From contig OZ253545.1 of NCBI GenBank assembly GCA_965262615.1, positions 288,001-352,000 of the forward strand: DNA of 64,000 nt. Direction: 5' to 3'. Source of the DNA: Alphaproteobacteria bacterium (GTDB lineage: Bacteria > Pseudomonadota > Alphaproteobacteria > GM7ARS4 > G965262615). The position numbers were made by a program, and so were the translations under genes. Each line of letters opens with the position of its first letter. The stretch's first letter is position 1. Shown here in pieces: positions 6,063 through 60,027 of this stretch. The notes beneath the pieces were generated by a model, which worked only from the letters and a program-made list of their open reading frames with translations, had not been told where the DNA came from and did not search any database.

Positions 6063-6619
6063 CGCCCCCTTTGCCAAAGGAACGCTTTGCCATCCTCTAT
6101 GCCGACCCGCCGTGGGACTACAAAGGACAGTGGCAACACGCTGGCTGTGGCAGCGACGACACAGGGGGAGCGGCGCGTCATTATCCCACCGTCACATTGA
6201 ACGACATGATTGGTTGGGACATCGCCAGCATCACCGAAAAAGATGCCCTGCTTTTTATGTGGTCTAGTTCGCCTCACTTGGATCAAGCCATTCAACTGGG
6301 CAAAGGATGGGGATTTGCCTGGGCGACCATCGCCTTTGTGTGGGATAAGCAACGGGTGAATCCATCGTTCTACACCATGAGTCAGTGCGAATTGTGTCTT
6401 GTGTTCAAAAAAGGCAAAATTCCCAGCCCTCGCGGCGCGCGCAATGTGCGTCAATTTCTGTCGGAAAAGCGCGCCGCCCATTCGGTCAAACCCGACAGCG
6501 TCCGCCAGCGCATTGAATCCATGTTTCCCCATCACAAAAAAATAGAGCTGTTTGCCCGTCAGCACACCAAAGGCTGGCACGCATGGGGGCTGGACATCAC
6601 TTCCGCAACAAAGGAATAG
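6059..6619 (+). CDS. MT-A70-family (DPPW) adenine methyltransferase, orphan
   Basis: ILYADPPWDY, LLFMW, AFVWDK, HSVKPD, KIELFARQ..GW.AWG; ATGA overlap with phoU. Confidence 0.88.
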   Translation: MTPPLPKERFAILYADPPWDYKGQWQHAGCGSDDTGGAARHYPTVTLNDMIGWDIASITEKDALLFMWSSSPHLDQAIQLGKGWGFAWATIAFVWDKQRVNPSFYTMSQCELCLVFKKGKIPSPRGARNVRQFLSEKRAAHSVKPDSVRQRIESMFPHHKKIELFARQHTKGWHAWGLDITSATKE

Positions 6620-6757
6620 AGCTGTTTGTCAGCACACCAAAGGCTGGCACGCATGGGGACTGGACATCACTTCCGCAACAAAGGAATAGAGCTGTTTGTC
6701 AGCACACCAAAGGCTGGCACGCATGGAGACTGGACATCACTTCCGCAACAGAGGAAT
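6541..6757. repeat. 3 tandem copies (74/70/70 bp) of the MT-A70/ampG convergent 3'-end junction
   Basis: Units start at 6541, 6615 and 6685 (aatagagctgtttg...catcacttccgcaacaRagg). Confidence 0.97.
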
Positions 6758-7984
6758 GCTGCGTAGATAATACACAATAAATAACGCTGGCAGTGCCGCC
6801 ACCGCCGACACAATGAAAAAAGTATCCCACGCCACCCATGATGCCACATAACCACTGCCCGATGCCAACACGCTGCGTCCCACCATCGCCAATGAAGACA
6901 ACAACGCATAGTGACTCGCCGCCAGTGACACATCACACAAGCGCGACAAAAACGCCACAAACACCGCCGAGCCCATGCCTCCCGTCACATTTTCAATCAT
7001 CACCACCCAAAACAACACCGTCACATCGTGACCCGCCGCATAGAGCCAGACAAAAGCAAAATTAGACACCAATTGCAAAATTCCCGCCACCAACAACGCT
7101 CGCCCCAATGACCAGTGATAACTCATAAAAGCTCCCGCAATCGTTCCCGCTATCACTGCGCCCGTTCCCACAACCTTAGACACCAACGCCACCTCACTCG
7201 CCGAAAAAGAAAGGGCATAATAAAAAGGAAGAGTCATCACCCCCGCCACCGCATCTCCCAATTTATAAAGAGGAATAAAAAGCACAAACCACAGCATTTT
7301 TTCTTTCATCAACAGTGTGCGTAGACAATCAAGCCAAAAAACAAGCCCTTTGGAAGCAACCTTCACTTTCAAGGGACGCTCAGTTGGAGCACAAATTGTC
7401 ATCACCATGCACGGCAGCAAAGCCGCCGCCATCACGCCGTACACCATCTGCCATGACATCCATTCTGATAGTGCCAGTGCGCCCGCGCCCGCCATCAATA
7501 ATCCCAGCCGATAGCCCATCTGCAACACCGCCGCACCAACGCCCTGCTCAGACGGCGGCAACAACGCAATGCGATAGCCATCAATGGCAATGTCTTGAGA
7601 GGCGGAAAAAAATGACACAAGCAAAGCCAGCAGTGCCAACATCAATGGCTGTTCTGACGGATTCTGAAACCCCATCAGCACAATGACCGGCACCAATGCC
7701 CATTGACTCACGAGAATGAGTCCTCGCCTTTTCATTCTCAGAGACGCGCCGTGAGCATCAAAAAACGGCGCCCACAAAAATTTAATCGCATAAGGCAACG
7801 ACACCAACGAAAACAACCCAATGGATTGCAACGACACCCCTTGCGTTGATAGCCACCACGCCAAAGTAGACCCCGTCAACGCCAGCGGCAGTCCGCTGGC
7901 AAATCCAAGAACAAACAACGCCCCATATCGCCGTGTGCCCAACAGGCGGAGCGATGATGCCGCGTCATCCATCCATCGCCGCAT
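6737..7984 (-). CDS. ampG: AmpG-family muropeptide MFS permease
   Basis: LGFASGLPLALTGSTL, LPYAIKFLWAP, SASQDIAIDGYRI, YKLGDA, ENVTGGMG. Confidence 0.92.
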   Translation of the reverse strand: MRRWMDDAASSLRLLGTRRYGALFVLGFASGLPLALTGSTLAWWLSTQGVSLQSIGLFSLVSLPYAIKFLWAPFFDAHGASLRMKRRGLILVSQWALVPVIVLMGFQNPSEQPLMLALLALLVSFFSASQDIAIDGYRIALLPPSEQGVGAAVLQMGYRLGLLMAGAGALALSEWMSWQMVYGVMAAALLPCMVMTICAPTERPLKVKVASKGLVFWLDCLRTLLMKEKMLWFVLFIPLYKLGDAVAGVMTLPFYYALSFSASEVALVSKVVGTGAVIAGTIAGAFMSYHWSLGRALLVAGILQLVSNFAFVWLYAAGHDVTVLFWVVMIENVTGGMGSAVFVAFLSRLCDVSLAASHYALLSSLAMVGRSVLASGSGYVASWVAWDTFFIVSAVAALPALFIVYYLRSIPLLRK

Positions 7985-8976
7985 CAATGATCGCCTTGCA
8001 CAATCAGTTTTTGCAACGACTCTGCGGGTCGCCCGCCAATATGAGAAATGACCTCTTCCGCCGCCCATGCCCCCAAGTGACCACATTCCACCAGCGTTTT
8101 GTCATGAGCCAATCCCCATAAGAATCCTGCGGCATACAAATCTCCTGCGCCGGTCATATCCACCACGCCGGCGCGCGCATACGCCGCAATCTCATGACGC
8201 TCCTCGCCTTGCAAAATCACCGAGCCTTGCGCACTGCGTGTGCCAATCACCGTCTCACACAGTGAGAGCAGAAAATGCTCTTGGGTCTCTTGCTCCTTGC
8301 TGTCACACAAAGCCTCCGCCTCTCGCGCATTGGCAAAGACAATATCAACATGATTCTTCATAAAAGGAATGAGCGTATGACGATGCTCCATCACCAAGCC
8401 GCCATCGGACAAAGAAAACGCCACCCTGCCTCCCGCCGCCTTCACGCGCTGTGCCGCCTTGCTGAGCACTTTTTGTCCGTGAGGGCAGCTCCACAAATAA
8501 CCTTCCAAAAAAACAATGGCGGTGTCATCAAGCCACTGGTCATTGAGATCGCTGGGCTCTAATTCAGTGCTCGCCCCAAGAAATGTCTGCATGGTGCGTT
8601 CGGCATCCGGTGTCACGGCAATCAGACAGTGTGCCGTTTCAGCCCCCTCTTGTGCCTGCGGTGTCTCATAGCACACCCCCATGGCGCGAATGGAGCTCAC
8701 AAATTCATCCCCCCAATGATCCTTTTTCACCCGTCCGATAAACGCCGCCGAGCCTCCCAGTGATGCCACTCCCACCGATGTATTCGCCGCCGAGCCGCCA
8801 CACACACATTCTTGCACCCGCAAAGAAGACACCACATCTTGCGCCACCGGCTGCGTCACAAGAGTCATTCCGCCCTTGACTAATTGATGCTGCAACAAAA
8901 AATCATCCTCCACCGCCACCAAAACATCCACCACGGCATTGCCAATGGCAAGCACATCAAATTCTTTACGCGCCAT
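7984..8976 (-). CDS. PfkB-family sugar/adenosine kinase
   Basis: IGNAVVDV, GGSAANT, ERTMQTFLGAS, DMTGAGDLYAAGFL; GGGAGG SD before ATG 8976. Confidence 0.9.
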   Translation of the reverse strand: MARKEFDVLAIGNAVVDVLVAVEDDFLLQHQLVKGGMTLVTQPVAQDVVSSLRVQECVCGGSAANTSVGVASLGGSAAFIGRVKKDHWGDEFVSSIRAMGVCYETPQAQEGAETAHCLIAVTPDAERTMQTFLGASTELEPSDLNDQWLDDTAIVFLEGYLWSCPHGQKVLSKAAQRVKAAGGRVAFSLSDGGLVMEHRHTLIPFMKNHVDIVFANAREAEALCDSKEQETQEHFLLSLCETVIGTRSAQGSVILQGEERHEIAAYARAGVVDMTGAGDLYAAGFLWGLAHDKTLVECGHLGAWAAEEVISHIGGRPAESLQKLIVQGDH

Positions 8977-9616
8977 TTTTTCCCTCCCATGAACATAAAT
9001 CATAAATCACACATCCCTCACACAACGGATTGCGCGCTTTGCAGCGATAGCGTCCGTGCAAAATCAACCAGTGATGGCAGTGCCGCAACGCCCACGATGG
9101 CACCACCTCCATCAATTGCTTCTCCACCGCATCAGGTGTCTTTGCCGATGCCAGCCCCAAGCGATGAGACACCCTAAATAAATGAGTATCCACCGCAATG
9201 GTGGGCTGTCCAAACGCCGTGTTGAGAACCACATTGGCAGTCTTGCGTCCCACACCCGCCAGACTCACCAATTCCGCCTCACTGGCAGGAACTTCTCCCG
9301 CAAAGTCATCCACCAACTGCTGACTCAGTGTCATGATGTTGCGCGCCTTATTACGATACAATCCAATGGTTTTAATGTGATCAATCAAGCCCGCCTCTCC
9401 CAGTGCCAGCATTTGCTCGGGACTGTGCACCTTGGCAAATAATCCCTCCGTTGCCTTATTGACTCCCTTATCGGTCGCCTGTGCCGACAGCACCACCGCT
9501 ACCAATAATGTGTAGCTGTTGCTATAGTTCAGCTCTCCTTTGGGCTCTGGCGTGACCTCGGCAAAGCGGCGAAACATTTCCTCAATGGTGTCGCTGTTTG
9601 GTGGCGTGGTATTCAT
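8966..9616 (-). CDS. nth: Endonuclease III
   Basis: LLVAVVLSAQATDKGVNKAT, HhH LAGVGRKTANVV, VDTH, C-x6-C-x2-C-x5-C Fe-S motif. Confidence 0.96.
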   Translation of the reverse strand: MNTTPPNSDTIEEMFRRFAEVTPEPKGELNYSNSYTLLVAVVLSAQATDKGVNKATEGLFAKVHSPEQMLALGEAGLIDHIKTIGLYRNKARNIMTLSQQLVDDFAGEVPASEAELVSLAGVGRKTANVVLNTAFGQPTIAVDTHLFRVSHRLGLASAKTPDAVEKQLMEVVPSWALRHCHHWLILHGRYRCKARNPLCEGCVIYDLCSWEGKNGA

Positions 9617-9659
9617 CGTCTCCTCATAGCAACCCTCACATCGAAAAAACACCCTTATC

Positions 9660-10559
9660 ATGAAAAAACAGGTGGGCATACAGGAAATCGGATGGCTGAT
9701 TGTGCTCTCCATGATTTGGGGCTCTTCGTTCAGCCTGATCAAAGGGGCGGTGTCATGGATGCCTCCTCTTTTGCTGGTGAGCGGACGGCTCGCCATCGCC
9801 GCGCTGATTTTCATCGTTATTTTTGCTCACATGACCATGCCTCGTCATCATTGGCGGCAATACGGTCATGGCTATGTCGTCATTGGAGCGTTTGGCAATG
9901 TGATTCCGTTCACGCTGGTGGGCTGGAGTGAACAAGTGATGGACAGCGCACTTGCCGCCATCATTGTGGGACTCATGCCCTTCTTCACCCTTCTGTTCAC
10001 CCACCTCATGACTCGTGACGAACGCCTCTCCCGCCGCCGCCTGTTGGGCATCATGTTGGGACTTCTGGGCATTGCTCTGTTACAAGGATTTGAACTCACC
10101 CTTCGCATGGGCAGTTCCGCCGCCCTGCTCGCCATGGTGACATCCACCATCAGCTACGGCTTTGCCGCCGCCTATGCGCGCCGTTGTGATGGTCACAATG
10201 CCCTTATTTTGGCGGGCTATTCCATCATTGTGGGTTTTTTGCTCTGCCTGCCGTTTGCCCTCTATCATCACTGGCACTGGCTCATGACGCCGCGCCCTTT
10301 TGATATCAATGCCACCCTCGCCGTTGTGCTGTTGGGTGTGGTCAACACCGCCCTGGGAGGCTTGATATTTTTTCGTATCGTGTTTCGCTCAGGTGCGCTG
10401 TTTGCCAGTGCGTCCAACTATGTGATGCCTCTGTTTGGCGTGAGCTTTGGTGTCATTTTTTGGAACGAAACGCTCGGCATCAATGCCATTGTCGCCATGA
10501 TTTTCATCATGCTGGGCTGTTTCTGCCTTGCGCCGCCACGAAAAAAGTCACGCTTCTAA
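9660..10559 (+). CDS. DMT/EamA family transporter
   Basis: IWGSSFSLIK, about 10 TM segments in two EamA repeats. Confidence 0.88.
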   Translation: MKKQVGIQEIGWLIVLSMIWGSSFSLIKGAVSWMPPLLLVSGRLAIAALIFIVIFAHMTMPRHHWRQYGHGYVVIGAFGNVIPFTLVGWSEQVMDSALAAIIVGLMPFFTLLFTHLMTRDERLSRRRLLGIMLGLLGIALLQGFELTLRMGSSAALLAMVTSTISYGFAAAYARRCDGHNALILAGYSIIVGFLLCLPFALYHHWHWLMTPRPFDINATLAVVLLGVVNTALGGLIFFRIVFRSGALFASASNYVMPLFGVSFGVIFWNETLGINAIVAMIFIMLGCFCLAPPRKKSRF

Positions 10560-10567
10560 TCACGCTT

Positions 10568-11125
10568 CTAGGGAGCCGGCACAATCTCTATCATGCCCGA
10601 TTGCGCAATGCCATCGTCAGTGTCACTGGCGATTTGATTCTCCTGCCCCGTTGCCCGCAGCAGTGTCTCCGTCCATTCAATAAAGCATTGACGAGCATCA
10701 TCCCACGCCAGTTCAGCCACGCGAACCGCCCGTGACACATACGCCTCCTCATCCACAATTTGCGCCGAACGACTGATAGAAGACACACAATTTCCAAACT
10801 TCCCATGCAATGCTTTCAGCGACTCCGATGAACTCAAGGACGCAGGCAAAGGCTCACTGTCACTCAATTGCTCCAATTTATCAGCCAATAATTCCTCCGC
10901 TTCAATAAATTGTTCCTCATCCAACACATCCTTATTCACCATAAACCCTTCCAGCAACCGCCCCTGCAAAATAATCGCCTGCCCCAACAGATTAGACCGT
11001 TCGGCAATCCATTCGTTGTATTGCATGGCTTCGGATGACGAGATATCGCCGTCACACGAGACCAGACCCAGCGAGGTCATCACCATCACCGCCGACACAA
11101 TCCAACTGCTCACCGTTTTTCTCAT
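10568..11125 (-). CDS. Hypothetical acidic lipoprotein
   Basis: Signal peptide with lipobox LVS-C; fills the gap between known genes; no recognised family. Confidence 0.65.
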   Translation of the reverse strand: MRKTVSSWIVSAVMVMTSLGLVSCDGDISSSEAMQYNEWIAERSNLLGQAIILQGRLLEGFMVNKDVLDEEQFIEAEELLADKLEQLSDSEPLPASLSSSESLKALHGKFGNCVSSISRSAQIVDEEAYVSRAVRVAELAWDDARQCFIEWTETLLRATGQENQIASDTDDGIAQSGMIEIVPAP

Positions 11126-11213
11126 GACTTTATGCCATCTAACACTTGCAAGAAAAAATAACAACCTCTACAATGAAAAGACTGTGAACCAATTCATGCA
11201 GAGGATTACAAAG

Positions 11214-11687
11214 ATGGAAATGGTGAGAAAACAACGCAACGCTCTGTGGTTGTGCCTGTTGTTGCTGGTGGGCTGTGAACGAGGGGGCGATTTGAGCGTG
11301 GTTGAAAAAACCATCGTGGATGCCACCCCCGGGCAAACCTGGGCAATCATTGGTGATTTTAATGATATGGAGCGGTGGCATCCTGCTGTGGTGCGCACCG
11401 AAATCTTGGATGATGGATTCTCCCGCATCCTTTATCTGGAGGATGGCGGCGAACTGAGAGAGAAACTCTTGGATTACACAGACGGGGTCTCCTATCGTTA
11501 TAAAATATTGAGTGGTCCCCTGCCTGTGGAAAATTATGTCTCCACTCTGTCGGTAGAACCAACCCAAGATGGACGCACTCGCATCACTTGGGAAGCCAAT
11601 TTTGATCCCACCGAGGGAACGGCGAATTCCGAAGCACAGGAAATCGTCCGCCGCGTCTATCGTGCCGGATTGGATCGCCTGCGCTGA
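11214..11687 (+). CDS. SRPBCC (polyketide cyclase 2 / MxaD-like) lipoprotein, paralog 1
   Basis: Lipobox LVG-C; W..IGDFN....WHPAV, R.L.L.DGG, YKILSGPLPVENYVSTLSV, YRAGL. Confidence 0.85.
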   Translation: MEMVRKQRNALWLCLLLLVGCERGGDLSVVEKTIVDATPGQTWAIIGDFNDMERWHPAVVRTEILDDGFSRILYLEDGGELREKLLDYTDGVSYRYKILSGPLPVENYVSTLSVEPTQDGRTRITWEANFDPTEGTANSEAQEIVRRVYRAGLDRLR

Positions 11688-11854
11688 AGAGTTGTGAATA
11701 GGGTGTCAACATCTTAAATTTAGGTTTTGAAAAGTCTCTGTTCTATTAGATTGTATCAAAGATATTCTAACAGATTGTCTTGACCCTTGCAAAAAAGGCA
11801 GTTTTGAAGTGGGGTGTCGCCTCTTTCTGACGCGACCCAATAATAAAGGAAGTC

Positions 11855-12004
11855 ATGATGATGATATTCTTTGGAAAATACACTCTTCTCGCTACCTTTT
11901 CCCTGCTGAGCGTTGATGTAACAGAGACCATAGAAGCTTTAATGTCATCTCGTCATTAAATCGTCCGCCGCGTCTATCGTGCCGGATTGGATCGCCTGTG
12001 CTGA
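11855..12004 (+). pseudogene. Chimeric SRPBCC remnant: diverged 5' end of a paralog-2-like gene joined to a 47-bp copy of the paralog-1 3' end
   Basis: 34-aa ORF 11855-11959 (MMMIFFGKYTLLATFSLLSVDVTETIEALMSSRH) aligns to the paralog-2 N-terminus; 11958-12004 matches 11641-11687 at 46/47. Confidence 0.8.
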
Positions 12005-12011
12005 TTAACCC

Positions 12012-12040
12012 TTGCAAAAAAAGCAAATGTGAGGTATAAC
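12012..12040 (+). promoter_or_regulatory. Putative sigma70 promoter of SRPBCC paralog 2
   Basis: TTGCAA, 17 bp, TATAAC; followed by AAGGAGG SD before ATG 12083. Confidence 0.65.
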
Positions 12041-12082
12041 CGTTCATCTTTTTCAACTTGACCCAATCGTAAGGAGGTCGCG

Positions 12083-12559
12083 ATGATGTTTTCTAAGTTT
12101 TCTAATAAATATGCTCTTTTGGCTGTCTTTTCCTTGCTGCTGGCATCTTGCGGCAGCGATAGCTCTGTCTCTGTGACAGAAACTCAAGAAGTTTCCATGT
12201 CACCCAGCCAGGTGTGGGAACAGATTGGTGCTTTTAATGATATGGGACGATGGCATCCCGCCGTTGCCCGCACCGACATGTCGCCAGATGGCTCGGTGCG
12301 CACCCTGGTCCTCCAAGACGGAGGGACAATCAACGAACGCCTTGTGGATTACAGTGACGGCAGCTTCTACAAATACGAAATCCTTGATGGCGTGTTGCCC
12401 GTGATGAACTATGTCTCCACCATTGCCATTGAGCCCAGCAACAACGGAACGATGGTGACATGGAGCTCCACCTTTAATCCTGCCGAAGGAGTCACCGCAG
12501 ATAAAGCTGAGGAAGTTGTTCGCGGTGTCTATCGTGGGGGGTTGAATAACATTCGCTGA
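12083..12559 (+). CDS. SRPBCC (MxaD-like) lipoprotein, paralog 2
   Basis: Lipobox LAS-C; VWEQIGAFNDMGRWHPAV, RTLVLQDGGTINERL, LPVMNYVSTI, YRGGL. Confidence 0.88.
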   Translation: MMFSKFSNKYALLAVFSLLLASCGSDSSVSVTETQEVSMSPSQVWEQIGAFNDMGRWHPAVARTDMSPDGSVRTLVLQDGGTINERLVDYSDGSFYKYEILDGVLPVMNYVSTIAIEPSNNGTMVTWSSTFNPAEGVTADKAEEVVRGVYRGGLNNIR

Positions 12560-12573
12560 TTGCTTCATCTCAA

Positions 12574-13797
12574 TCATCCCAAAGGCATAAATGAAACCAA
12601 AACGCCTCGCCCTTGCGGCGGGGCGTTTTTTTCGTGGCGAATCAAAACATCCGATAACGACATCAACCGTAGCATGGCACTGTCCTGCCCTCTGTAAGGA
12701 AAAAGCCAGCTGCGCCCCTTTGAGTCATGACGCAATCGCCCTCGTAGGAAAGCCAGCCTTTTGCCGTTGCTGGGCAAATCTCGTCCCAATTGTCCTTGTG
12801 ACCATGTCCTCGCTTTGCATCCTTGAGCCGCCGCCAGCATGGGCAACAAAAAAACACAAGCTCCCACCATCGCCGAGACCGGGTTGCCCGGCAGTGCCAC
12901 CAATGGCTTGCCGTGAATTCTCATAAAACTCAATGGCTTGCCGGGGCGCACCGCCACCCCAGAAAAAAGACACTCAATGGCAGAATCATGCCGGCACAAC
13001 CATGCCATCACATCATGCGCCCCTTGAGACACGCCCCCCGTGGTGACGAGAATGGACGCATCACTGCGCGCCATCTCGTCCAAACGCTTGCGCAATTCAT
13101 CAGGGTCATCAGGGACAATGCCCCAGTCGCGCGGCGCACTTCCATGAGCCCGCATCATCGCCATGATGCCATACAAACTGGACGGTGTCACAATGGGACG
13201 CTGAGGGTCACGCTCATGCACAGCGCGCGCATCGTGAGGCTGTAGCAATTCATCCCCAGTCGCCAAACACGCAATGACGGGCTTTGTTCTCACAGACACG
13301 CCGTCATGCCCCGCCGCCGCCGCCAACGCTATATCATAACTGGTCAAACACCTGCCCGCACGCAAGACAATTGCTCCCTCTTTGAAATCCAATCCCCGCT
13401 GCCGCACAAAACACCCACGCCGCCAGTAAGAAGCCGATGGCGTGAGATGAACCATGCCATCATGCGCCACAGAATCCTCAATGGGAATGACACTATCGCT
13501 GCCTGCGGGCATCACGCCTCCCGTGTAAATGCGCGCCGCCTGACCCCCATCAAGCGAGCCGTTCCAGCGTTGCCCTGCGGCAATCTCACCCACCTGCGTT
13601 ACCGTGAACGAACCTTGCTGTTGATGGGCAAGAGCGTAGCCATCCATCGCCGACACATCGGCAAACGGATGATGCCAGCGCGCACACACATCAGATGCCA
13701 AAACACGACCCTCGCTCTCATGCAATGGCACATCTTCCGTGTCGCTTGCGGGCATAGAGGGAATCATCTGTGCGAGGGCATCTTCATAGTCAATCAT
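12574..13797 (-). CDS. moeA: Molybdopterin molybdotransferase MoeA
   Basis: SAMDGYAL, RIYTGGVMP, ATGDEL, TTGGVS.G..D, VRPGKP, LPGNPVSA. Confidence 0.94.
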   Translation of the reverse strand: MIDYEDALAQMIPSMPASDTEDVPLHESEGRVLASDVCARWHHPFADVSAMDGYALAHQQQGSFTVTQVGEIAAGQRWNGSLDGGQAARIYTGGVMPAGSDSVIPIEDSVAHDGMVHLTPSASYWRRGCFVRQRGLDFKEGAIVLRAGRCLTSYDIALAAAAGHDGVSVRTKPVIACLATGDELLQPHDARAVHERDPQRPIVTPSSLYGIMAMMRAHGSAPRDWGIVPDDPDELRKRLDEMARSDASILVTTGGVSQGAHDVMAWLCRHDSAIECLFSGVAVRPGKPLSFMRIHGKPLVALPGNPVSAMVGACVFLLPMLAAAQGCKARTWSQGQLGRDLPSNGKRLAFLRGRLRHDSKGRSWLFPYRGQDSAMLRLMSLSDVLIRHEKNAPPQGRGVLVSFMPLG

Positions 13798-14245
13798 GAT
13801 GCCGCCGCCATGTTCCTGAGCGTCCGCCTTCTTTGGACACCAATTGCACATCGGTCACCGTCATGGAGCGATCCATGGATTTGCACATATCGTACACGGT
13901 CAAACACGCCGCCATCACCGCCGTCAGAGCCTCCATCTCAACGCCTGTGCGTCCATGATTTTTCACCGTCACCGTCACGCACAAATGACCATCCGACTCA
14001 AAATCACACGCCACATCAACCGACGACAGACCGATGGGATGGCACAACGGAACAATGGATGGTGTGTGTTTTGCCGCCATAATCGCCGCCACCTGTGCCA
14101 GCTGCAACACATCACCCTTGTCAATGCGTCCCGCAAGAATGGCTTGCTTGGTGCTGGCGAGCATCACCACCCGCCCCGATGCCGTTGCGGCGCGCCGCGT
14201 CTCTTTTTTGTCACCCACATCAATCATCCGAGAGGCTTTAGCCAT
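13790..14245 (-). CDS. moaC: Cyclic pyranopterin monophosphate synthase MoaC
   Basis: MIDVGDK, KGDVL, PLCHPI, TGVEMEALTAV, YDMCKS, KEGGRSG. Confidence 0.95.
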   Translation of the reverse strand: MAKASRMIDVGDKKETRRAATASGRVVMLASTKQAILAGRIDKGDVLQLAQVAAIMAAKHTPSIVPLCHPIGLSSVDVACDFESDGHLCVTVTVKNHGRTGVEMEALTAVMAACLTVYDMCKSMDRSMTVTDVQLVSKEGGRSGTWRRHHD

Positions 14246-15035
14246 CACATTCAATCCATTTCTTCAATTCGTTCCCCGGATGGGATGCCCGCATCAATTG
14301 CTCTCCCATGAGAAACATGCTCACTGACGCTTGCCGATAGCGCAAAAAGGTCTCTGTGTCTTTGATGCCACTCTCCGCCACCGCCAAGCGACCCTTCGGC
14401 AAGCATCCGTGAAGTCGCAAAGCCTCTTCATGATCAATGGTAAGATCGCGCAAATTGCGGCTGTTAACACCAATAAGGGCATCCTCAATGGACAAGGCTT
14501 GACGCAATTCCTCTTCATCATGAGCCTCTGCCAACACAGTCAGCTGCAAACGGCGAGCCACCGCCGCCAGTGTCGCGCTCTCTTTTGGCGACAGTGCCGC
14601 CATGATGAGCAAAATGGCATCCGCTCCACACGCACGAGATTCATACAATTGCCACTCATCCATGATGAAGTCTTTGCGTAAAATAGGAATTGAGCTGTTT
14701 TTTTTGGCAGCACTGAGATCATCAAGCGAGCCGCCAAACCATTGTTCTTCGGTCAAAACCGACAGGGCAGCCGCTCCCGCCCGTTCATACTGATGAGCGA
14801 TTTGAATGGTGTCATGATTCATGGCAAACTGTCCCGCACTGGGAGATGCCTTCTTAATCTCGGCAATGATGGCAAAACCTCGTTGCTTCACGCTCTTTTG
14901 CAACGAAGACACAAACGAGCGCGGCGGTAGCGATTGCATCGCTCGCCGCTTCATCTCATCAAGAGAACATTGTTGTTTGCTCTTCATGACCGACTGGCGG
15001 CGCGCCGTCATAATGCGTGTGAGAACATCACTCAT
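14238..15035 (-). CDS. trpC: Indole-3-glycerol phosphate synthase
   Basis: IIAEIKKASPSAG, LSVLTE, LRKDFI, GADAILLI, GVNSRNL, VAESGI. Confidence 0.96.
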   Translation of the reverse strand: MSDVLTRIMTARRQSVMKSKQQCSLDEMKRRAMQSLPPRSFVSSLQKSVKQRGFAIIAEIKKASPSAGQFAMNHDTIQIAHQYERAGAAALSVLTEEQWFGGSLDDLSAAKKNSSIPILRKDFIMDEWQLYESRACGADAILLIMAALSPKESATLAAVARRLQLTVLAEAHDEEELRQALSIEDALIGVNSRNLRDLTIDHEEALRLHGCLPKGRLAVAESGIKDTETFLRYRQASVSMFLMGEQLMRASHPGNELKKWIECDG

Positions 15036-15235
15036 GGCTCATGTGACAATAACGATGCAACACCTGCAAGGCTGTGCCTTCGTGCAGTGTTTAGAGCATT
15101 GTTGTTTGCTCTTCATGACCGATTGGCGGCGCGCCGTCATAATCCGTGTGAGAACATCACTCATGGCTCATCACTCATGGCTCATGCGACAATAGCGATG
15201 CAACACCTGCAAGGCTGTGCCTTCGTGCAGTGTTT
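14964..15235. repeat. 2 tandem copies (129 and 143 bp) of the trpD-end/trpC-start junction, with a nested 14-bp duplication
   Basis: 14964-15092 is similar to 15093-15235; catcactcatggct is doubled at 15155-15182. Confidence 0.97.
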
Positions 15236-16193
15236 GTTGTGCGTGATCAAAGGCGGTGGCAAGGTCATCGTGACGACCACTCACCACCGCCATCGCCGCA
15301 CCATTCAAAGCCACCGCCGATGCCAGCGATGAATTCTTGCCTTGCAAAACGCCTTCCATCAATCGTGCATTGTCATCGCCAGAGCCGCCCCCCAAATCAC
15401 TGGGGGCATGGCTTTTTATTCCCAAAGCCGATGGCTCAATGCACTCCTCAGTCAATGTGCCATCTTCGTGCAGAACGGTGACCTGTGTGGGCGCGTGGGA
15501 GACGATTTCATCGTAGCCGTCTCCATGAACCACCCATATTTTTTTGCCTCCCAAGCGTTTGAATGTGGAAGCCATTGTGGCGCGCCATGCATCATCAAAG
15601 ACTCCCATGAGGGCGATTTTGTTTTGTGCCGGATTGGCAAGAGGCCCCGCCATGTTAAAAATTGTTCGCACCGCCAGAGCCCGCCGCACTGCCGCCACAT
15701 GCTTCATTGCTCCGTGATACAATGGCGCCCACAAAAAACAAAAGCCACATTCGCGCAAGGATTTTTGCATCACATCAGCCTCCGCCTCAATGTTTGCGCC
15801 CAGTTTCTCCAAGACATCTGCCGACCCAGCTCGCGATGACACCGCCCGATTGCCATGCTTGACCACCTTCATTCCCATCGCTGCCCCCAGCAGTGCCGCC
15901 GCCGTTGATATATTGAAGCTGCCCTTGCCATCGCCTCCCGTGCCGCAATTATCAATCACATCATCATGGGCGGCAAACGGACGCATCACCTGACGCATCG
16001 CCGTCACCAGCAACGGCAGAGCTCGCGCTTCCGCGTCCCGTGCCATCAGCAATGCAAGCAATGCCGCCACCACCGCATCATCGGCATCGCCCGCCATCAT
16101 CTCATTGAATGCCGCCTCATAGAGGTCATCAGAGACCTCGTTGCCGTTCCACAATTGACTGACAACCTGATCCACATCCCTCTCAGCCGCCAT
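15171..16193 (-). CDS. trpD: Anthranilate phosphoribosyltransferase
   Basis: DNCGTGGDG..SFNISTA, KHGNRAVSSRAGSADVLE, RTIFNMAGPLANP. Confidence 0.96.
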   Translation of the reverse strand: MAAERDVDQVVSQLWNGNEVSDDLYEAAFNEMMAGDADDAVVAALLALLMARDAEARALPLLVTAMRQVMRPFAAHDDVIDNCGTGGDGKGSFNISTAAALLGAAMGMKVVKHGNRAVSSRAGSADVLEKLGANIEAEADVMQKSLRECGFCFLWAPLYHGAMKHVAAVRRALAVRTIFNMAGPLANPAQNKIALMGVFDDAWRATMASTFKRLGGKKIWVVHGDGYDEIVSHAPTQVTVLHEDGTLTEECIEPSALGIKSHAPSDLGGGSGDDNARLMEGVLQGKNSSLASAVALNGAAMAVVSGRHDDLATAFDHAQQTLHEGTALQVLHRYCRMSHE

Positions 16194-16758
16194 GACACAC
16201 CTCCAAAAACTGACGCAAAATATCATGACCATGCCTCGTGGCAATGCTTTCCGGATGAAACTGCACGCCATAAAACGGCAACTCCTTGTGAGTCATTGCC
16301 ATAATCATGCCATCATCCTCACTGACGGCATCAATGGTGAAACAATCGGGCAGGGATGCCGCCTCCACCACCAGCGAATGATAGCGCGCCGCCGCAAATG
16401 GATTGGGCAATTCCCGCAATAAATGATCTCCCTCATGACGAATGGTGCTCACCTTGCCATGCATGGGATTGGCGCGCACAACGCGTCCGCCAAACGCCTG
16501 ACCCAACGCCTGATGCCCCAAACACACACCCAGCAACGGAATCCCCTGTGTGCAATTGGCTTTAATCAAATCCAAGCAGATGCCCGACTCATTGGGCGTG
16601 CAGGGACCAGGGGACAGCACGATGCTTTGAGCGCGCGCCAGTGCGTCATCAACCGATATGGCATCATTGCGCACCACATCAAAAGACACCCCCAACTCGC
16701 CCATGTAGTGAACAAGGTTAAAGGTGAAACTATCATAATTATCAATCAACAGATGCAT
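16183..16758 (-). CDS. trpG: Anthranilate synthase component II (glutamine amidotransferase)
   Basis: [42 protein letters not shown]. Confidence 0.95.
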
Positions 16759-16818
16759 TCTCGCCCCTTCACACAAAATGATAGCACGAAGACATCTTTT
16801 ATGCTACGATGCTCAGTG

Positions 16819-17547
16819 ATGGCTCGGCGCACAAAACTGACAAAAATCTACGAGGGCAAAGCCAAGGATCTGTTTGAAGGTCCCGACCCGCACACCCTCG
16901 TGCAATATTTCAAAGACGACACCACCGCCTTTAACAAAGAAAAAAGCGGGGTGATTGAAGGCAAAGGCATCATCAACAATCGCATATCGGAATATATCAT
17001 GGCACAGCTGAGCCAACATGGCATCGCCACCCATTTTCTCAAACGCCTCAATATGCGCGAACAACTGATTCGCAAAGTGGATATGTTCCCCTTGGAAGTT
17101 GTGGTGCGCAACATTGCGGCGGGCTCTATCTGTCGGCGGTTGGGACTCACCGAAGGCGATGCTCTGCCTCGCTCCATCGTGGAATACTACTACAAAGAAG
17201 ACCAATTGAGCGACCCTCTCGTGAGCGATGACCACATCACCGCCTTTGGCTGGGCAAGTTTTCACGAACTGGAAGAACTCTACGCTATTTCCTTGCGTAT
17301 CAATGACTTTCTCAGAGGCTTATTCGCCGCCGCCCATCTGGTTTTGGTGGATTTCAAACTGGAATACGGCAAAGACAGTGAGGGCAATATTATTCTTGCC
17401 GATGAAATCAGCCCCGATTCATGCCGCCTGTGGGATCAAACCACTCGGAACAAAATGGACAAGGATCGCTTTCGTCACAATTTAGGCGGAGAAGCCGAAG
17501 CCTATACTGAGGTGGCGCGCCGTTTGGGTGTCTTGCCCGCCGCTTGA
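16819..17547 (+). CDS. purC: SAICAR synthetase
   Basis: [52 protein letters not shown]. Confidence 0.97.
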
Positions 17548-17549
17548 AA

Positions 17550-17822
17550 ATGATGCGTTTTATTGTCTCTATTTGGCCCCGCAAGGCACAGCTGGACCCC
17601 CAAGGCACTGCCATCCACCATTCACTCGCTCAATTGGGATTTGACGGTGTCTCTCATGTCACGCACGGCAAGCAACTGGCGGTCACCGTGGAGGAATCCT
17701 CAGAGAAAAAAGCACACGCACGCATTGATGACATGTGTCGCACTTTGTTGGTCAATCCCATCACGGAGGATTACACCATTCGCCGCTCCGATGACGATGA
17801 CGCATCATGCACACCGCAATAA
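17550..17822 (+). CDS. purS: FGAM synthase subunit PurS
   Basis: LDPQG, LGF..V..V..GK, MC..LLVNPITEDY; lies between purC and purQ. Confidence 0.92.
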   Translation: MMRFIVSIWPRKAQLDPQGTAIHHSLAQLGFDGVSHVTHGKQLAVTVEESSEKKAHARIDDMCRTLLVNPITEDYTIRRSDDDDASCTPQ

Positions 17823-18475
17823 TCTCATTCCCTGGGTCTAATTGCGAAGAGGATGTGGCGCGCGCGCTCCATGAGGTCACGGGAGCTGCACCGTCGCGTC
17901 TGCGGCATGATGAAACCCAAGCACAAAAAGCCGATTTGTATGTTCTGCCCGGTGGCTTTTCCTTTGGTGACTATTTGCGCGCAGGAGCTCTCGCGGCACG
18001 GGCGACAATCATGGATGACATTGTCAAACGCGCCAGCAAGGGCGCGTATCTGCTGGGAATTTGCAATGGCTTTCAAATTCTGCTGGAGCGAGGATTGCTG
18101 CCGGGCTGTCTGCTGACCAATCATCATTTGCGCTTTCGCTGCTCCATGCAAGCTCTGCAAGTCGCCAATGCCGATACCGTCTTTACGCACCAATTTGCCA
18201 ATGATGAAGTCATTCACTTTCCCATCGCCCATCAAACGGGATGCTATCATGCCGATGAGACGACATTGAATCGCCTCAAAGACAATGACCAAATTGCCTT
18301 TCGCTATCATGACAATAATCCCAACGGCTCGGCGGACGGCATTGCCGGCATCTTTGATGACCACAAACGCATTCTCGGAATCATGCCGCACCCTGAGCGC
18401 GCCATGCACTCCATTCATGAATCGCAAGATGGAAAACGCTTTTTTCAAGGATTGCTTCATGCTCTTAAAAAATAA
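17807..18475 (+). CDS. purQ: FGAM synthase subunit PurQ
   Basis: FPGSNC, PGGFSFGDYLRAGA, GICNGFQIL, NPNGS, MPHPERA. Confidence 0.96.
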   Translation: MHTAIISFPGSNCEEDVARALHEVTGAAPSRLRHDETQAQKADLYVLPGGFSFGDYLRAGALAARATIMDDIVKRASKGAYLLGICNGFQILLERGLLPGCLLTNHHLRFRCSMQALQVANADTVFTHQFANDEVIHFPIAHQTGCYHADETTLNRLKDNDQIAFRYHDNNPNGSADGIAGIFDDHKRILGIMPHPERAMHSIHESQDGKRFFQGLLHALKK

Positions 18476-20660
18476 GGCATTTGCGAATTTCAATGATGAT
18501 GAACAAGAACTCATCAAAAAATTGCTGAAACGAGACCCCGTTGATTTGGAGTGTGCCCTCATCAAGGCTCTGTGGTCGGAGCATTGTTCTTATAAATCGT
18601 CAAAAAATTGCCTCAAGCGTCTTCCCAATGAGGCTTCATGGGTTTTGTGTGGTGAGGGCGAAAATGCGGGAGCGGTGGATGTGGGCGATGGGCTGGCTTG
18701 TGTCTTTAAGATTGAAAGTCACAACCATCCATCGTTTATAGAACCCTATCAGGGAGCGGCAACGGCGGTGGGAGGTATTTTGCGTGATATTTTTGCCATG
18801 GGTGCGCGTCCCAAAGCACTGATGAATGTCCTCGCCTTTGGTGAGCCTTCCCATGCGCGCACTCGTTATCTATTGCGCGAGGTGGTGCGCGGCATTGGCG
18901 ACTACGGCAATTGCGTGGGCGTTCCCACTGTGGGCGGCGAATGTCGCTTTGATGCCAGTTACAATGACAATATCATCGTCAATGCTTTGGCGGCGGGAAT
19001 TGTGCCTCATGATGGTCTGGCGTCGGCTGCCGCACCCAGTGGCTCGCTATTGATGTATGCTGGCAGCACCACAGGACGAGATGGCATTGCGGGAGCTGAA
19101 ATGGCATCGCGTCCTTTTCAGCACAACGCCATCACCGACGACAGACCCTCCGTGCAGGGCGGCGACCCTTTTGCTGGCAGACAAATCATGCAAGCCTCTC
19201 TTGCCATCATCAACCGACGGCTCGCTCTGGCGGTGCAAGACATGGGGGCGGCGGGACTCACATCCTCTGTCTTTGAAATGGCTGAAAAAGGTGAAGTATC
19301 GCTCAATTTAAATCTTGACTGTGTCCCTCTGCGGATGCCTTATCTCACCCCTCATGATATCATGCTCTCGGAAAGCCAAGAGCGTATGCTCTTTGCCATT
19401 GAGCCCGCCAAACAAAAAGCCGTGGAGACCATTCTCAATGAATGGCAATTGAGCCATGCCGTCATCGGACAATTTAATGAGGGCAATCGCGTCACCGCCA
19501 CCATGAACGGCAAAACCGTGTTTGATCTGCCCACCGCCATCGTCTCTCAAGCCCCCGTGTATGACCGCCCACAAAAAGACACCAAATTACCTCCTCCCAT
19601 GCCGCGCGACCATCATCTCAAAATCAAAGATGACCCTCATCTCATGCAAAAAAATCTCACATCCATGCTTGGCAGTCATCATGCCGCCAGTCGCCGCTGG
19701 ATTTTTGAGCAATACGATTGTCATGTCATGACCGATACCGTGCAGGCATCGGGAGGCGATGCGGCAATCATCCGCATTCACGACAACGGCAGGGCAATAG
19801 CCCTCGCCTGTGATTCTCACCCGCGCGCCACGGCTCTTCACCCGCGGCACGGCACGGCTCTGGCTGCGTCCGAGTGTTATCGCAATCTGTGTGCGGTGGG
19901 CGCGCGCCCTTTGGCATTCACCAATAATCTCAATTTTGGCAATCCCGAAGACCCTCACATCATGACCCAGCTGGCGCAATCCATTGAGGGACTGCGAGAT
20001 GCCGCCCTTGCCCTTGATTGTCCTGTCGTCTCCGGCAATGTCTCTCTCTACAATGAGACCGACCAGCATGCCATCATGCCCACGCCCGTCATCGGCGGCT
20101 TGGCGGTCATGGAGGACATGACTCAGCATGCCCATCTCAAAAACCTCAATCAAGGCGACCAGATTTTTCTCATTGGCGAATCAAGAGGGGAATTGGGCGC
20201 GTCTCTTTATTGTCACTGTCACCAGCTGGCGCGTGATTTTGCTCCGCCCGAGCCGCGCCTTGACGAGGAGAAAAAACACGGCACATTTGTGCGCCACATG
20301 ATTGAGCAAAACATCACCCGCTGCGTTCATGATGTCAGTGACGGCGGTTGGATCATGGCAATCTGTGATATGATCTGTGCCAGTGGGCAAGGCGTTCGGC
20401 TGCATCGTGAGGCGCGCTCAGAGATGTCTTTGACGGCATGGCTGTTTTGTGAATCCCCCGCCCGTTATATCCTTGTCACCGCGAAGCCTCAATCACTGCA
20501 AGAACAAGCCACAAAGCACACAATTCCCCTCGCTTCTCTCGGCATGGTGACAGGAGACGCGCTCTCCATGCAAGGGGTTTTTGATTGTCCCGTCACCGAA
20601 TTAATCCGTCTTTACTCTCAATGGTTTGATGATTATATTGATGGTAGGGAGATGCCATGA
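18459..20660 (+). CDS. purL: FGAM synthase subunit PurL
   Basis: WSEHCSYKSS, FKIESHNHPSFIEPYQGAATAVGGILRDI, QDMGAAGL, MLSESQERM, VSGNVSLYNET. Confidence 0.97.
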   Translation: MLLKNKAFANFNDDEQELIKKLLKRDPVDLECALIKALWSEHCSYKSSKNCLKRLPNEASWVLCGEGENAGAVDVGDGLACVFKIESHNHPSFIEPYQGAATAVGGILRDIFAMGARPKALMNVLAFGEPSHARTRYLLREVVRGIGDYGNCVGVPTVGGECRFDASYNDNIIVNALAAGIVPHDGLASAAAPSGSLLMYAGSTTGRDGIAGAEMASRPFQHNAITDDRPSVQGGDPFAGRQIMQASLAIINRRLALAVQDMGAAGLTSSVFEMAEKGEVSLNLNLDCVPLRMPYLTPHDIMLSESQERMLFAIEPAKQKAVETILNEWQLSHAVIGQFNEGNRVTATMNGKTVFDLPTAIVSQAPVYDRPQKDTKLPPPMPRDHHLKIKDDPHLMQKNLTSMLGSHHAASRRWIFEQYDCHVMTDTVQASGGDAAIIRIHDNGRAIALACDSHPRATALHPRHGTALAASECYRNLCAVGARPLAFTNNLNFGNPEDPHIMTQLAQSIEGLRDAALALDCPVVSGNVSLYNETDQHAIMPTPVIGGLAVMEDMTQHAHLKNLNQGDQIFLIGESRGELGASLYCHCHQLARDFAPPEPRLDEEKKHGTFVRHMIEQNITRCVHDVSDGGWIMAICDMICASGQGVRLHREARSEMSLTAWLFCESPARYILVTAKPQSLQEQATKHTIPLASLGMVTGDALSMQGVFDCPVTELIRLYSQWFDDYIDGREMP

Positions 20661-46204: not shown

Positions 46205-46756
46205 ATGAACAAAGAACAATTAAAAATCGCTGGCGCGCTCATGGCTTTGGTCTTGACCATCACCGTTGGCAGTGTTGGCACGGACTTGATTTACCATCCG
46301 TTCATATCCACCACCGACAGCAAACCCGCTTTTCTGCCGGAACAAGACACCGCAACCGCCTCTCCCACCACAAAAAAAGATTCTCAGCCTCAAGATGACA
46401 GCGCGTCCCTGCCGGATCGCCTCAAAAATGCCAGCATCACCCATGGTGAAAAAGTCGCCCGCCGATGCAAAGCCTGTCATTCCCTCAAGAAAAATGGCGC
46501 GATCAAAATTGGTCCTCCCCTGTGGAGCATTGTGGGAAGTCCTGTGGCATCCTTCTTTGGCTTTAACTATTCCGATTCTCTTAAAAATCTCAACACCATT
46601 TGGAGTCCCGCCGAACTGGATCGTTTTCTCAAAAAACCCTCCCGCTATGTCCCCGGCACAAAAATGAGTTTCGCCGGCATTGAAGACGGCAAAGATCGCG
46701 CCGATATCATCGCCTATTTGCGCACCCTCACCGCTGGAGGCAAGGGCGATCAATAA
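46205..46756 (+). CDS. Membrane-anchored cytochrome c (CycM/c552-like)
   Basis: N-terminal TM, CKACH haem motif, GPPLW.IVG, PGTKMSFAG, DRADIIAYL. Confidence 0.92.
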   Translation: MNKEQLKIAGALMALVLTITVGSVGTDLIYHPFISTTDSKPAFLPEQDTATASPTTKKDSQPQDDSASLPDRLKNASITHGEKVARRCKACHSLKKNGAIKIGPPLWSIVGSPVASFFGFNYSDSLKNLNTIWSPAELDRFLKKPSRYVPGTKMSFAGIEDGKDRADIIAYLRTLTAGGKGDQ

Positions 46757-49359: not shown

Positions 49360-49375
49360 ACCCATCGCCTGAGTC

Positions 49376-50476: not shown

Positions 50477-50480
50477 TCTC

Positions 50481-58394: not shown

Positions 58395-58834
58395 TTCTGT
58401 CGCCAAGGGAATCCCTCCGCTTTCCAGCCGTTATGACAGCCTCGTTGTCCTTTCTCATCCAGATCCCCCTCAAAGCCCGGCACCACATTGTAGCATTTCG
58501 CAAAACCCGCCGCCGTCAATGCCATCGCCGCCATGCGAGAACGACCGCCCGAACGACACAGACACAAAATCGTCATGCTCTCATCGAGACCACGCGCTTT
58601 GACATCTGATACAAAATTCATATTCTGAGTCATCCCAGGATAAACCTGCCAGGGAACATAACAAACCTCCCCGCCCAATGAAGACACATCACACACGCCC
58701 ACATAATTCCATTCCGCATCCGTGCGACAATCCAGCAGACGAGCTTGAGAATCTTCTTGCAACAATTGCCACGCCTGCTGCACCGTTATATCGCCACCGT
58801 AGGATGCCGACTGTGTCACTTGATCGCTCGCCAT
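58391..58834 (-). CDS. Rhodanese-like domain protein
   Basis: YGGDI....AW..L, LLDCRT.AEW.YVG, CLCRSGGRS..AA, CYNV..GFEG.LD..G.R....GWK..G.PW.Q. Confidence 0.92.
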   Translation of the reverse strand: MASDQVTQSASYGGDITVQQAWQLLQEDSQARLLDCRTDAEWNYVGVCDVSSLGGEVCYVPWQVYPGMTQNMNFVSDVKARGLDESMTILCLCRSGGRSRMAAMALTAAGFAKCYNVVPGFEGDLDEKGQRGCHNGWKAEGFPWRQK

Positions 58835-58911
58835 CGTCTTCCTTTCTTAAAGCCCCTCTCCTAGAAACCCCAGAAATCAAGGGTTTTTCATAAAATTCAT
58901 TCCCACAGCAT

Positions 58912-58939
58912 CAATTCATTGTGCCAATTCATTGTGCCA
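58912..58939. repeat. 13-bp direct tandem repeat in the rhodanese-dnaA/ogt divergent region
   Basis: caattcattgtgc twice, plus a partial aattcatt at 58894. Confidence 0.75.
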
Positions 58940-59063
58940 CTGCAAAAGTTTTTTCTCAAGATGAATAAAATTATTGACTTTTCAAATTCAAGGTTTCATA
59001 AGTCTTTTGACAAGAAAAATTGGTTATTAAATTGAAGATATTTGTTGTGCCGCTCTCCTGCCC

Positions 59064-59573
59064 ATGCTCACAGTGACGCTTTACCACAGTCCCATTGGCA
59101 TTCTTCACATCACCTGCAGTGCAAAACAAATTCATCGCTTGCGGTGGCTGCGCGCGCATCATGATGTCATTGATGAAGGCAGTCAGACGAGCCTGACACA
59201 GCGCGTGACTTCTTGGTTGAATTCCTACTTTTCTCGCCATCGCCCCACTCCTTTGGCAGAGGATTTGTTTTGCTGGGATGATGTCTCCGTCTTCACAGCC
59301 ACCATTCTCAAACAGGTGCGCCACATTCCTTATGGCTCACTGGTGAGTTACAAAAATGTGGCAGAGGAAGCGGCGACAGGGGCGCGAGCGGTGGGAGGCG
59401 CGTTGTCGCGCAATCCATTTCCCATTCTCATTCCCTGTCATCGCATCATTGCCAGTAATAGCCAAAAGGCTCGCCATCTTTGTCTCAAAGGATATTTGGG
59501 TGCAGAAGGCGTGACAAAAAAGAAGTATTTATTGGCTTTGGAAAATCCTCAACTATTCTCAGCTATTCATTGA
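59064..59573 (+). CDS. ogt: Methylated-DNA-protein-cysteine methyltransferase
   Basis: SPIG.L, IPYG...SY, ARAVGGA..RNP.PI.IPCHRII, K..LL.LE. Confidence 0.93.
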   Translation: MLTVTLYHSPIGILHITCSAKQIHRLRWLRAHHDVIDEGSQTSLTQRVTSWLNSYFSRHRPTPLAEDLFCWDDVSVFTATILKQVRHIPYGSLVSYKNVAEEAATGARAVGGALSRNPFPILIPCHRIIASNSQKARHLCLKGYLGAEGVTKKKYLLALENPQLFSAIH

Positions 59574-60027
59574 CTGAAAAAAGTCTTTATTGCTTTTGGA
59601 GGTGGTGAGTTTCTCAAGGATGAATTCCATCGCATCCACAGTTCCCATAGGTGTGAGAATTCTCCGCAGCACCCACATTACGGCATTGCCAAAAAGAAAT
59701 ACCTATTAGCTCTGGAAAATCCTCAACTATTCTCAGCTATTCATTGACTGAAAAAAGTCTTTATTGCTTTTGGAGGTGGTGAGTTTCTCAAGGATGAACT
59801 CCATCGCATCCACAGTTCCCATGGGCGTGAGAATTCTCCGCAGCACCCACATTACGGCATTGCCAAAAAGAAATACCTATTAGCTCTGGAAAATCCTCAA
59901 CTATTCTCAGCTATTCATTGACTGAAAAAAGTCTTTATTGCTTTTGGAGGTGGTGAGTTTCTCAAGGATAAACTCCATCGCATCCACAGTTCCCATGGGT
60001 GTGAGAATTCTCCGCAGCACCCACATT
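59508..60027. repeat. 3 tandem copies (174-bp period) of the ogt/rho convergent 3'-end junction
   Basis: Units start at 59508, 59682 and 59856; the junction cacccacattacggcattgcc occurs twice. Confidence 0.98.

Follow-up and report, generated by a model that had tools for sequence, protein, structure and literature searches.

Three gene junctions of the 64,000-nt window analysed here, a part of a single contig of 1,542,258 bp (G+C 51.4%) from an uncultured alphaproteobacterium [GenBank: OZ253545.1], carry tandem arrays whose units hold the ends of both flanking genes: MT-A70 methyltransferase/MFS transporter, trpD/trpC and ogt/rho. We regard these arrays, with a probability of about three in four, as ordinary tandem duplications which survive only where both neighbouring genes stay whole, so that no new mobile system has to be assumed. 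The arrays, together with a related fourth case between two SRPBCC genes, had been noticed in an earlier sequence-only reading of the window, and their presence and their position across gene junctions were confirmed by Tandem Repeats Finder (TRF), a gapless repeat finder and Pfam. In the window the high-identity head-to-tail units are of 70, 129/143 and 174 nt and 87-99% identical, and the live reading frames at these loci are intact as judged by open reading frames (ORFs) and Pfam matches.

Tandem arrays were identified with TRF and the gapless repeat finder in the window and by self-BLAST in the genome, and the flanking genes were assigned by Pfam. A crude gene caller applied to the whole genome gave 1388 genes and a coding share of 90.7%. 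The corresponding region in other strains was studied in contigs of four public runs (X1, X7, X10 and X11) aligned to window positions 1-20000; as these were assembled from short reads, they can document that a sequence is present but hardly that it is missing. The sponge-metagenome labels of runs X2 and X4-X6 give no indication of the habitat. Pieces of contigs from other runs differ from the window by ~1-4%. Coordinates are those of the window unless genome coordinates are stated.

The MT-A70/MFS junction comprises the following features:

6059-6619, plus strand: MT-A70 family methyltransferase (MTase) gene (ORF; Pfam PF05063, 58 bits), the last ~28 codons within unit 1
6534-6757, unstranded: tandem array of 74 + 70 + 70 nt and a short remainder (3-nt at the borders), found by TRF, repeat finder and BLAST
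6737-8086, minus strand: MFS transporter gene, previously called ampG and here assigned to MFS_1 only (Pfam, 59.5 bits), the last 6 codons and the stop in the last unit

TRF reports a period of 70 bp repeated 2.9 times at 6558-6757 with 97% matches, and the gapless repeat finder three 70-nt copies at 6558, 6628 and 6698. Every unit carries both the MTase stop and the stop of the MFS gene. Units 2 and 3 are without 4 nt (GCCC), which puts their MTase part out of frame, and the live MFS end differs from the spares by one synonymous change. When the array is collapsed to a single unit the spacer of 117 nt is reduced by 140 nt to -23, i.e. to an overlap of 23 nt. Precisely this arrangement is seen in the X11 contig, which skips 140 nt (6589 to 6730) and has one unit, while the X1 contig of depth 91 skips 71 nt and has two. 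Copy number at this junction thus amounts to 3 here, 2 in X1 and 1 in X11, among strains that are 2-4% diverged, and the one-unit overlapping state of X11 is the ancestral state.

At the trpD/trpC junction the duplication consists of two copies:

14238-15035, minus strand: trpC (IGPS; Pfam PF00218, 267 bits from residue 5), the start codon and first 24 codons in copy A
14964-15092, unstranded: copy A of the junction unit, 129 nt, with the live trpC start and a spare trpD end (repeat finder, BLAST)
15093-15235, unstranded: copy B, 143 nt, with the live trpD end and a spare trpC start (repeat finder, BLAST)
15155-15185, unstranded: nested 14-nt duplication (x2.2) in copy B, over the trpD stop and the spare trpC start (TRF, 100% matches)
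15171-16271, minus strand: trpD (anthranilate phosphoribosyltransferase; Pfam PF00591 and PF02885)

The gapless repeat finder pairs 14964-15042 with 15093-15171 (96%) and 15026-15092 with 15169-15235 (97%). BLAST merges the two pieces into one 129/143-nt duplication, whose identity is only 87% because of the nested 14-nt insertion. The live and spare trpC ends differ by three synonymous changes, and on collapse the spacer of 135 nt loses 143 nt, giving -8 (an 8-nt overlap). The X1 and X11 contigs stop at 14993/15085 and resume at 15206, giving no trp copy number.

The third junction has the longest units:

59064-59573, plus strand: ogt (O6-methylguanine-DNA methyltransferase; Pfam PF01035 and PF02870), the last 21 codons in unit 1
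59508-60029, unstranded: three 174-nt units (59508, 59682, 59856), each with an ogt end and a rho end (TRF, repeat finder, BLAST)
59508-59543, plus strand: diverged patch of unit 1
59907-61154, minus strand: rho (Pfam), the last 40 codons in unit 3

Here TRF finds 174 bp x2.9 at 59517-60027 with 97% matches, and the gapless repeat finder gives the three copies at 100, 93 and 92%. The two spare rho ends, of 41 residues each and 98% identity, show four synonymous differences. Collapse turns the spacer of 333 nt, less 348 nt, into -15 (a 15-nt overlap). In two order-level relatives ogt and rho are convergent neighbours as well, with a gap of 1 nt in one and 331 nt in the other, an arrangement that fits a tight ancestral junction.

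The earlier observation that collapse to one unit gives overlapping genes therefore holds at all three junctions (23, 8 and 15 nt). It is unremarkable in this genome because over a third of neighbouring genes overlap (38% of 162 convergent and 36% of 1064 co-directional junctions).

Evidence for the proposed explanation comes from the placement of arrays in the whole genome, where the search for similar repeats, also put forward earlier, yielded 61 tandem arrays. Among those with a frame-breaking period (not a multiple of 3) 2/25 lie within a called gene, against 19.7 ± 2.0 expected at random placement, and none of 2000 shuffles gave a number as low. Both intragenic exceptions are truly in-frame, with units of 81 nt (27 residues, in a peptidase-like gene) and 75 nt (in a coiled-coil gene), so after correction 0/23 frame-breaking arrays are found inside a gene. 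With in-frame periods, 18 of the 30 arrays are inside genes; the intragenic arrays are in frame and mostly belong to repeat proteins with Sel1-like, ankyrin-like or coiled-coil periods. The 81-nt x3.2 duplication (genome 920641-920900, within a gene of 619 aa) indicates that in-frame duplications survive in ordinary enzymes too. The arrays outside genes (n = 35; periods up to 400, judged against the gene calls of the crude caller) contain both gene ends in 14 cases, one in 17 and none in 4.

An order-level relative, G002 (1.63 Mb), was analysed over its first 400 kb by the identical procedure. It contains 73 arrays, compared with ~16 per 400 kb here (about 4-5 times as many), with periods of 30-176 nt and a few longer ones, at a coding density of 79%. 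None of its 35 frame-breaking arrays is inside a gene (null 25.8 ± 2.6), and 29 of the 59 arrays outside genes hold at least one gene end. Since G002 shows arrays too, the tendency is older than the genome studied here; the spacers of G002 seem to be growing by tandem duplication.

The units are local, 33 of the 35 having no BLAST match (E <= 1e-4) more than 3 kb away from the array to which they belong. In the 20 arrays at ≥94% identity the border remainders range from -17 to +15 nt, mostly 0-9 nt, and no motif common to the borders of these 20 was found. The 1.54 Mb genome yielded no match for resolvase, rve or DDE_Tnp_1, the families tried, and the only tyrosine recombinases are two open frames of 306-310 aa, Xer-like in size, at genome 22457 and 409253, far outside the window. 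Remainders of 0-15 nt, the absence of a border motif and the lack of a mobile-enzyme match would fit an origin by slippage or illegitimate recombination that needs no dedicated enzyme. The genes recA, mutS, mutL, dprA, xseA and a recJ-like gene are all present.

Differences between copies were analysed in 42 segments of 26 arrays by comparing codons of the live gene end with the spare copies; two arrays (genome 3991 and 727058) were left out as their alignments were meaningless. In the true frame 86 of the 171 single-base differences are synonymous. Permutation of each change among those sites of its segment that have the same base gave 50.8 ± 5.8, and in 5000 rounds a value of 86 was never attained. 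The true frame has an unweighted pN/pS of 0.28-0.29, the other two frames 0.88 and 1.81. The synonymous excess reported by the sequence-only reading is thus real, and its hand count was reproduced in the window, with 15 synonymous codon changes (rho 4, ogt 5, trpC 3, trpD 1, MTase 1, MFS 1), about five replacements (4, or 6 when two ogt edge codons are counted) and two indels, one of 4 nt (MTase units) and the other the nested 14-nt duplication. The conclusion drawn from it, that neutral decay should be mostly non-synonymous and the spares hence are strain alleles, ignores the half of the divergence contributed by the live copy. A model with the live end constrained and the spare neutral gives, with f = 0.297, a silent fraction of 2f/(1+f) = 0.458, and the observed one is 0.503 (p = 0.14). 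As the model predicts ~46% and 50% is observed, foreign alleles are not needed. In G002 32 of 82 differences (39%) are synonymous, where the null gives 23.7 and the model a fraction of 0.45. An early rejection of this model, based on unweighted sites, vanished under the base- and change-matched null. Decay of the spares is visible in two stop codons in the spare at genome 1149747 and in the 4-nt loss of the MTase units. The overall divergence between copies is ~4.5% per site.

The following course of events would account for these observations. A replication slip or template switch at 0-15 nt of chance microhomology would copy tens to hundreds of bases head to tail, and once two copies are present unequal exchange, presumably RecA-dependent, would gain or lose units, in line with the demonstrated variation in copy number. 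A duplication inside a gene should be disruptive, and be removed by selection, except where an in-frame unit is tolerated. A unit with a complete junction should be harmless, as the first unit completes the left gene and the last unit the right one. At an overlapping pair the surviving unit would have to hold both ends, so the loss of the overlap is a geometric by-product of the only harmless duplication available there. The outermost gene ends, being live, would then accept only silent changes, while the inner spare ends would decay, indels included, and later duplications would carry silent changes of the live lineage into new spares. Occasionally, homologous recombination with diverged co-occurring strains might exchange one of the neighbouring genes as far as some point within the array, the ogt end being the clear case, in which the spare would keep the earlier or other allele.

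The fourth locus represents the same kind of event as the three main ones:

11016-11687, plus strand: SRPBCC (Polyketide_cyc2) gene 1, longest ORF (Pfam), its last 47 nt being the live copy of a 47-nt repeat
11688-11957, plus strand: spare spacer and 5' part of gene 2, including a 34-codon remnant ORF at 11855-11959 (alignment)
11958-12004, plus strand: spare 47-nt end of gene 1, 98% identical (repeat finder)
12083-12559, plus strand: SRPBCC gene 2, a paralogue of gene 1 (Pfam PF10604)

The repeat pairs 11641-11687 with 11958-12004 (98%, gapless repeat finder). Positions 11780-11947 align with 12005-12202, i.e. with the spacer and first codons of gene 2 (125/161 identical), so that the duplicated unit ran from the end of gene 1 across the spacer into the start of gene 2; in the alignment of the 270 nt at 11688-11957 no part is comparable to the 5' region of gene 1, and no foreign DNA was found there. 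Divergence is far greater in the spare start (78% identity) than in the spare end (98%). The complete 317-bp block (11688-12004) is missing from X11 and from the main contig of X1, but an X1 contig of low depth contains it. The proposal that sister strains might differ in copy number at the same junctions was accordingly substantiated, with 1-3 units at MT-A70/MFS and presence or absence of this block.

Several observations weigh against the explanation by duplication and selection. In the window taken alone, 15 synonymous changes out of 19-21 exceed the simple model (p = 0.003-0.016), although the window had been chosen after the fact for this feature, and the ogt patch and rho supply half of the excess. 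Comparison of spare with spare reveals a silent excess as well, 19/40 against a null of 11.8 (p = 0.008). Differences also lean to the gene-body side of the live segments, i.e. to the outer edges (mean relative position 0.43; KS p = 9e-5, the sites being non-independent), which a uniform clock does not predict. Convergent junctions are over-represented, with 11/35 arrays against 162/1387 junctions (11.7%; p = 0.0016), and 7 of these 11 arrays collapse to an overlap, compared with 38% expected (p = 0.08). Finally, the structure is that of the assembled sequence, and the gene calls come from a crude caller. Some of these points can be accommodated. The spare-versus-spare excess can be produced by later duplications that copy changes of the live lineage, if the events followed that order, and two of the three apparently spare-specific rho changes can equally be live-lineage changes that preceded the last duplication. 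The convergent excess probably reflects the permissiveness of these junctions, which lack promoters and translational coupling; a mutational or adaptive bias may also underlie it.

An inter-strain origin is the best placed of the alternatives, even if we hold it improbable as a rule. According to it the spares are allele ends of other strains acquired through unequal or ordinary homologous recombination between co-occurring diverged strains, and the copies differed mostly silently from the moment of meeting. The ogt/rho array provides its clearest case, since of the 12 differences that separate units 1 and 2, 9 fall within the first 36 nt of the ogt unit (Fisher p = 4e-5), seven of the nine being silent and two conservative base changes. 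The spare codes for G-I-A and the live gene for G-V-T, and four environmental Ogt homologues (97, 84, 79 and 78% identical) have V-T, V-A, I-G and V-A at the two residues; since natural homologues vary there, the ogt spare looks like a once-working allele. Judging from this pattern, a recombination tract has probably replaced ogt up to about 59543, the spare units keeping the other allele. The spare-versus-spare excess and the skew to the outer edges point in the same direction, recA and dprA are present, the divergence between copies (~4.5% per site) is near that between strains (2-4%), and the samples contain several strains. The X7 pieces, for example, number 163/120/49 and those of X10 84/82/35 in the 99+, 95-99 and 90-95% identity classes. 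As a general rule, however, an origin from other strains is contradicted by silent fractions of 50% here and 39% in G002 that fit the simpler model (46% and 45%), by frame-shifting indels and stops in the spares, by the scattered single changes, not patches, of most arrays, and by the size of the 70-nt unit, which is probably too short for efficient homologous exchange. The idea that spares were recently functional ends of other alleles is therefore retained for the ogt patch and abandoned for the arrays at large.

Another view, to which we give similarly little credit, is broader: in an order of marine host-associated bacteria duplications might be born at a high rate biased to convergent overlapping ends, e.g. 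by transcription-replication collisions, and the arrays be kept for separating genes and archive earlier alleles. If this were true, the arrays would form a readable record of recombination history.

Somewhat less probable still is adaptive un-overlapping, in which selection favours duplications at overlapping, chiefly convergent, ends to relieve interference. The enrichment of convergent junctions is as it predicts, and the 7/11 convergent arrays that collapse do so to overlaps of 15-37 nt. The enrichment in overlaps is not significant, however, and 38% of convergent pairs still overlap free of arrays. A single extra unit would be enough, yet arrays reach 3-5; X11 carries the overlapped one-unit state; and 17/35 arrays have one gene end and 4/35 none.

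That the assembler concatenated strain variants or unmerged contig ends was considered in view of the mixed samples, the allele-like differences between copies and the public data, where 11 runs contain part of window 6001-16000 but none holds all words of the stretch (best share 0.75) and no source run is obvious. Such an artefact would ignore gene borders, whereas none of the 23 frame-breaking arrays breaks a gene; and the independent X1 contig of depth 91 has two MT-A70/MFS units in tandem. These two facts make it very unlikely. In addition, the contigs from two other strains are interrupted at the trp array, a usual effect of repeats, arrays have up to five units, and the pattern is repeated in G002.

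Least likely of all are scars of small integrative elements with a preference for gene junctions that would bring new ends for the two genes, since the geometry (direct repeats holding both gene ends) is all that recalls them, and the local units, the motif-free borders, the lack of a resolvase, rve or DDE_Tnp_1 match and the presence of no more than two tyrosine recombinases, together with the want of cargo between the units at the three main loci and the local nature of the 270 nt at 11688-11957 (diverged spacer and 5' end of gene 2), lead to rejection of the integrative islets once suggested.

Further candidates were discarded. Loss of mismatch repair as the cause is ruled out by the presence of mutS and mutL. 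Neither the ExoI C-terminal domain nor RecC was matched, but as each was found in only 1/14 control genomes their absence explains nothing. Single-crossover integration of small circles of kin DNA does not suit arrays of up to five units, and units of 70-174 nt are probably too short for it. A dispersed repeat family of MIRU or REP type is incompatible with the locality of 33/35 units, and an integrative scar (att duplication) with the lack of a resolvase, of a border motif and of foreign DNA between units. Silent-cassette variation was rejected as the rho, ogt, trpC and MFS spares of the BLAST-defined arrays code for the same residues as the live ends, and these are housekeeping genes.

Other arrays and strain differences were recorded. 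The recJ-like gene (match 9737-11248) has at its 5' end a 171-nt x5 array (genome 8902-9756), of which the first and last units have common variants missing from the three identical middle ones. A 39-nt x7 array (genome 759200-759477) begins exactly at the mutL stop (MutL_C 758621-759064, gene end 759202). Six tandem paralogous genes at genome 392463-397539 each contain an internal repeat of 123-132 nt x4.5-5.8, a single open frame of ~33.8 kb (genome 1257765-1291574) has internal 2652-nt repeats (~90% identical), and large gene families elsewhere in the genome have periods of 108 nt (Sel1-like) and 102 nt (ankyrin-like). Larger differences between strains lie at window 16836-17342, where 229 nt (16836 to 17066) are missing from the contigs of X1 and X11 and ~145 nt (17196 to 17342) are skipped or replaced in X1 and X10. 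Two small indels called in-frame-sized are a 13-nt insertion behind 1454 in X1 and a 12-nt deletion at 2450 in X1 and X11. No close relative was found in Ogt scans of genome and metagenome contigs, in which the best identity was 45% among the best 80 loci of each scan. The closest Rho among 30 related genomes is 75% identical, the genome studied being the sole member of its family there.

With the explanation by duplication and selection, the arrays provide a clean natural example of selection filtering a random mutational process, the filter being visible in two genomes as 0/58 frame-breaking arrays in genes (23 here and 35 in G002). They also illustrate that a spare lying beside a live gene appears selected because its live partner is, about half of the differences being silent without any foreign allele. 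The arrays are usable as strain markers for an uncultured lineage, and spare ends like that of ogt are fossils able to date an allelic replacement. The density in G002 (73 in 400 kb, 79% coding) suggests a lineage-wide growth of spacers by tandem duplication, parallel to that in Ehrlichia ruminantium.

The architecture had been described as lacking a named counterpart; the closest known cases are the variable tandem repeats of Ehrlichia and Wolbachia. In the single literature collection searched, which is not proof of absence, no paper was found on junction-spanning duplications that undo bacterial gene overlaps, nor did any treat such repeats in the symbionts of sponges; in PMC8546597, on a broad-host-range sponge symbiont, the term 'tandem repeats' occurs 0 times. 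Passages of a study of Portiera link genome instability and expanded intergenic regions to the loss of dnaQ and repair genes (PMC7821994), and the clade-wide repeats and long spacers described in them resemble the denser arrays and 79% coding density of G002. Of the repair genes, recA, mutS, mutL, xseA and a recJ-like gene are present here.

The MIRU-VNTR (variable-number tandem repeat) loci of mycobacteria consist of tandem units between operon genes, variable in number, in which the stop and start codons of the neighbours are kept in register. MIRUs are, however, one dispersed family found at many loci, whereas 33 of the 35 units here match nothing outside their own locus. Mitochondrial tandem duplication-random loss likewise affects compact overlapping genes, one working copy staying and the spare pieces decaying into spacers; those events duplicate and reorder whole genes, whereas here only gene ends are duplicated and the order is unchanged.

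Duplication and truncation of gene parts in Ehrlichia have reportedly been described by Collins et al. in 2005 and Frutos et al. in 2006. The repeats of Ehrlichia ruminantium (PMC10710844) resemble those studied here in belonging to a host-associated genome of ~1.5 Mb with many arrays, units of ~100-200 bp and copy number that varies among strains, and they too have been attributed to slippage; the G+C content differs, ~28-29% against 51% here. The genome studied here, moreover, is ~91% coding, so its units necessarily include gene ends and undo overlaps. In Wolbachia wMel, parts of PMC3287509 report 93 TRF loci in 1.27 Mb and attribute the repeats to slipped-strand mispairing; VNTR-141 and VNTR-105 have periods of ~100-140 bp, units 98-99% identical and ~1 to 7 copies among close strains. 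Period, unit identity and strain-variable copy number are thus shared with the arrays of the window, while the Wolbachia units, as presented in the same parts of that source, are intergenic with hairpins and internal repeats and those here are plain copies of flanking gene ends. The arrays belong with the known variable tandem repeats of small symbiont genomes.

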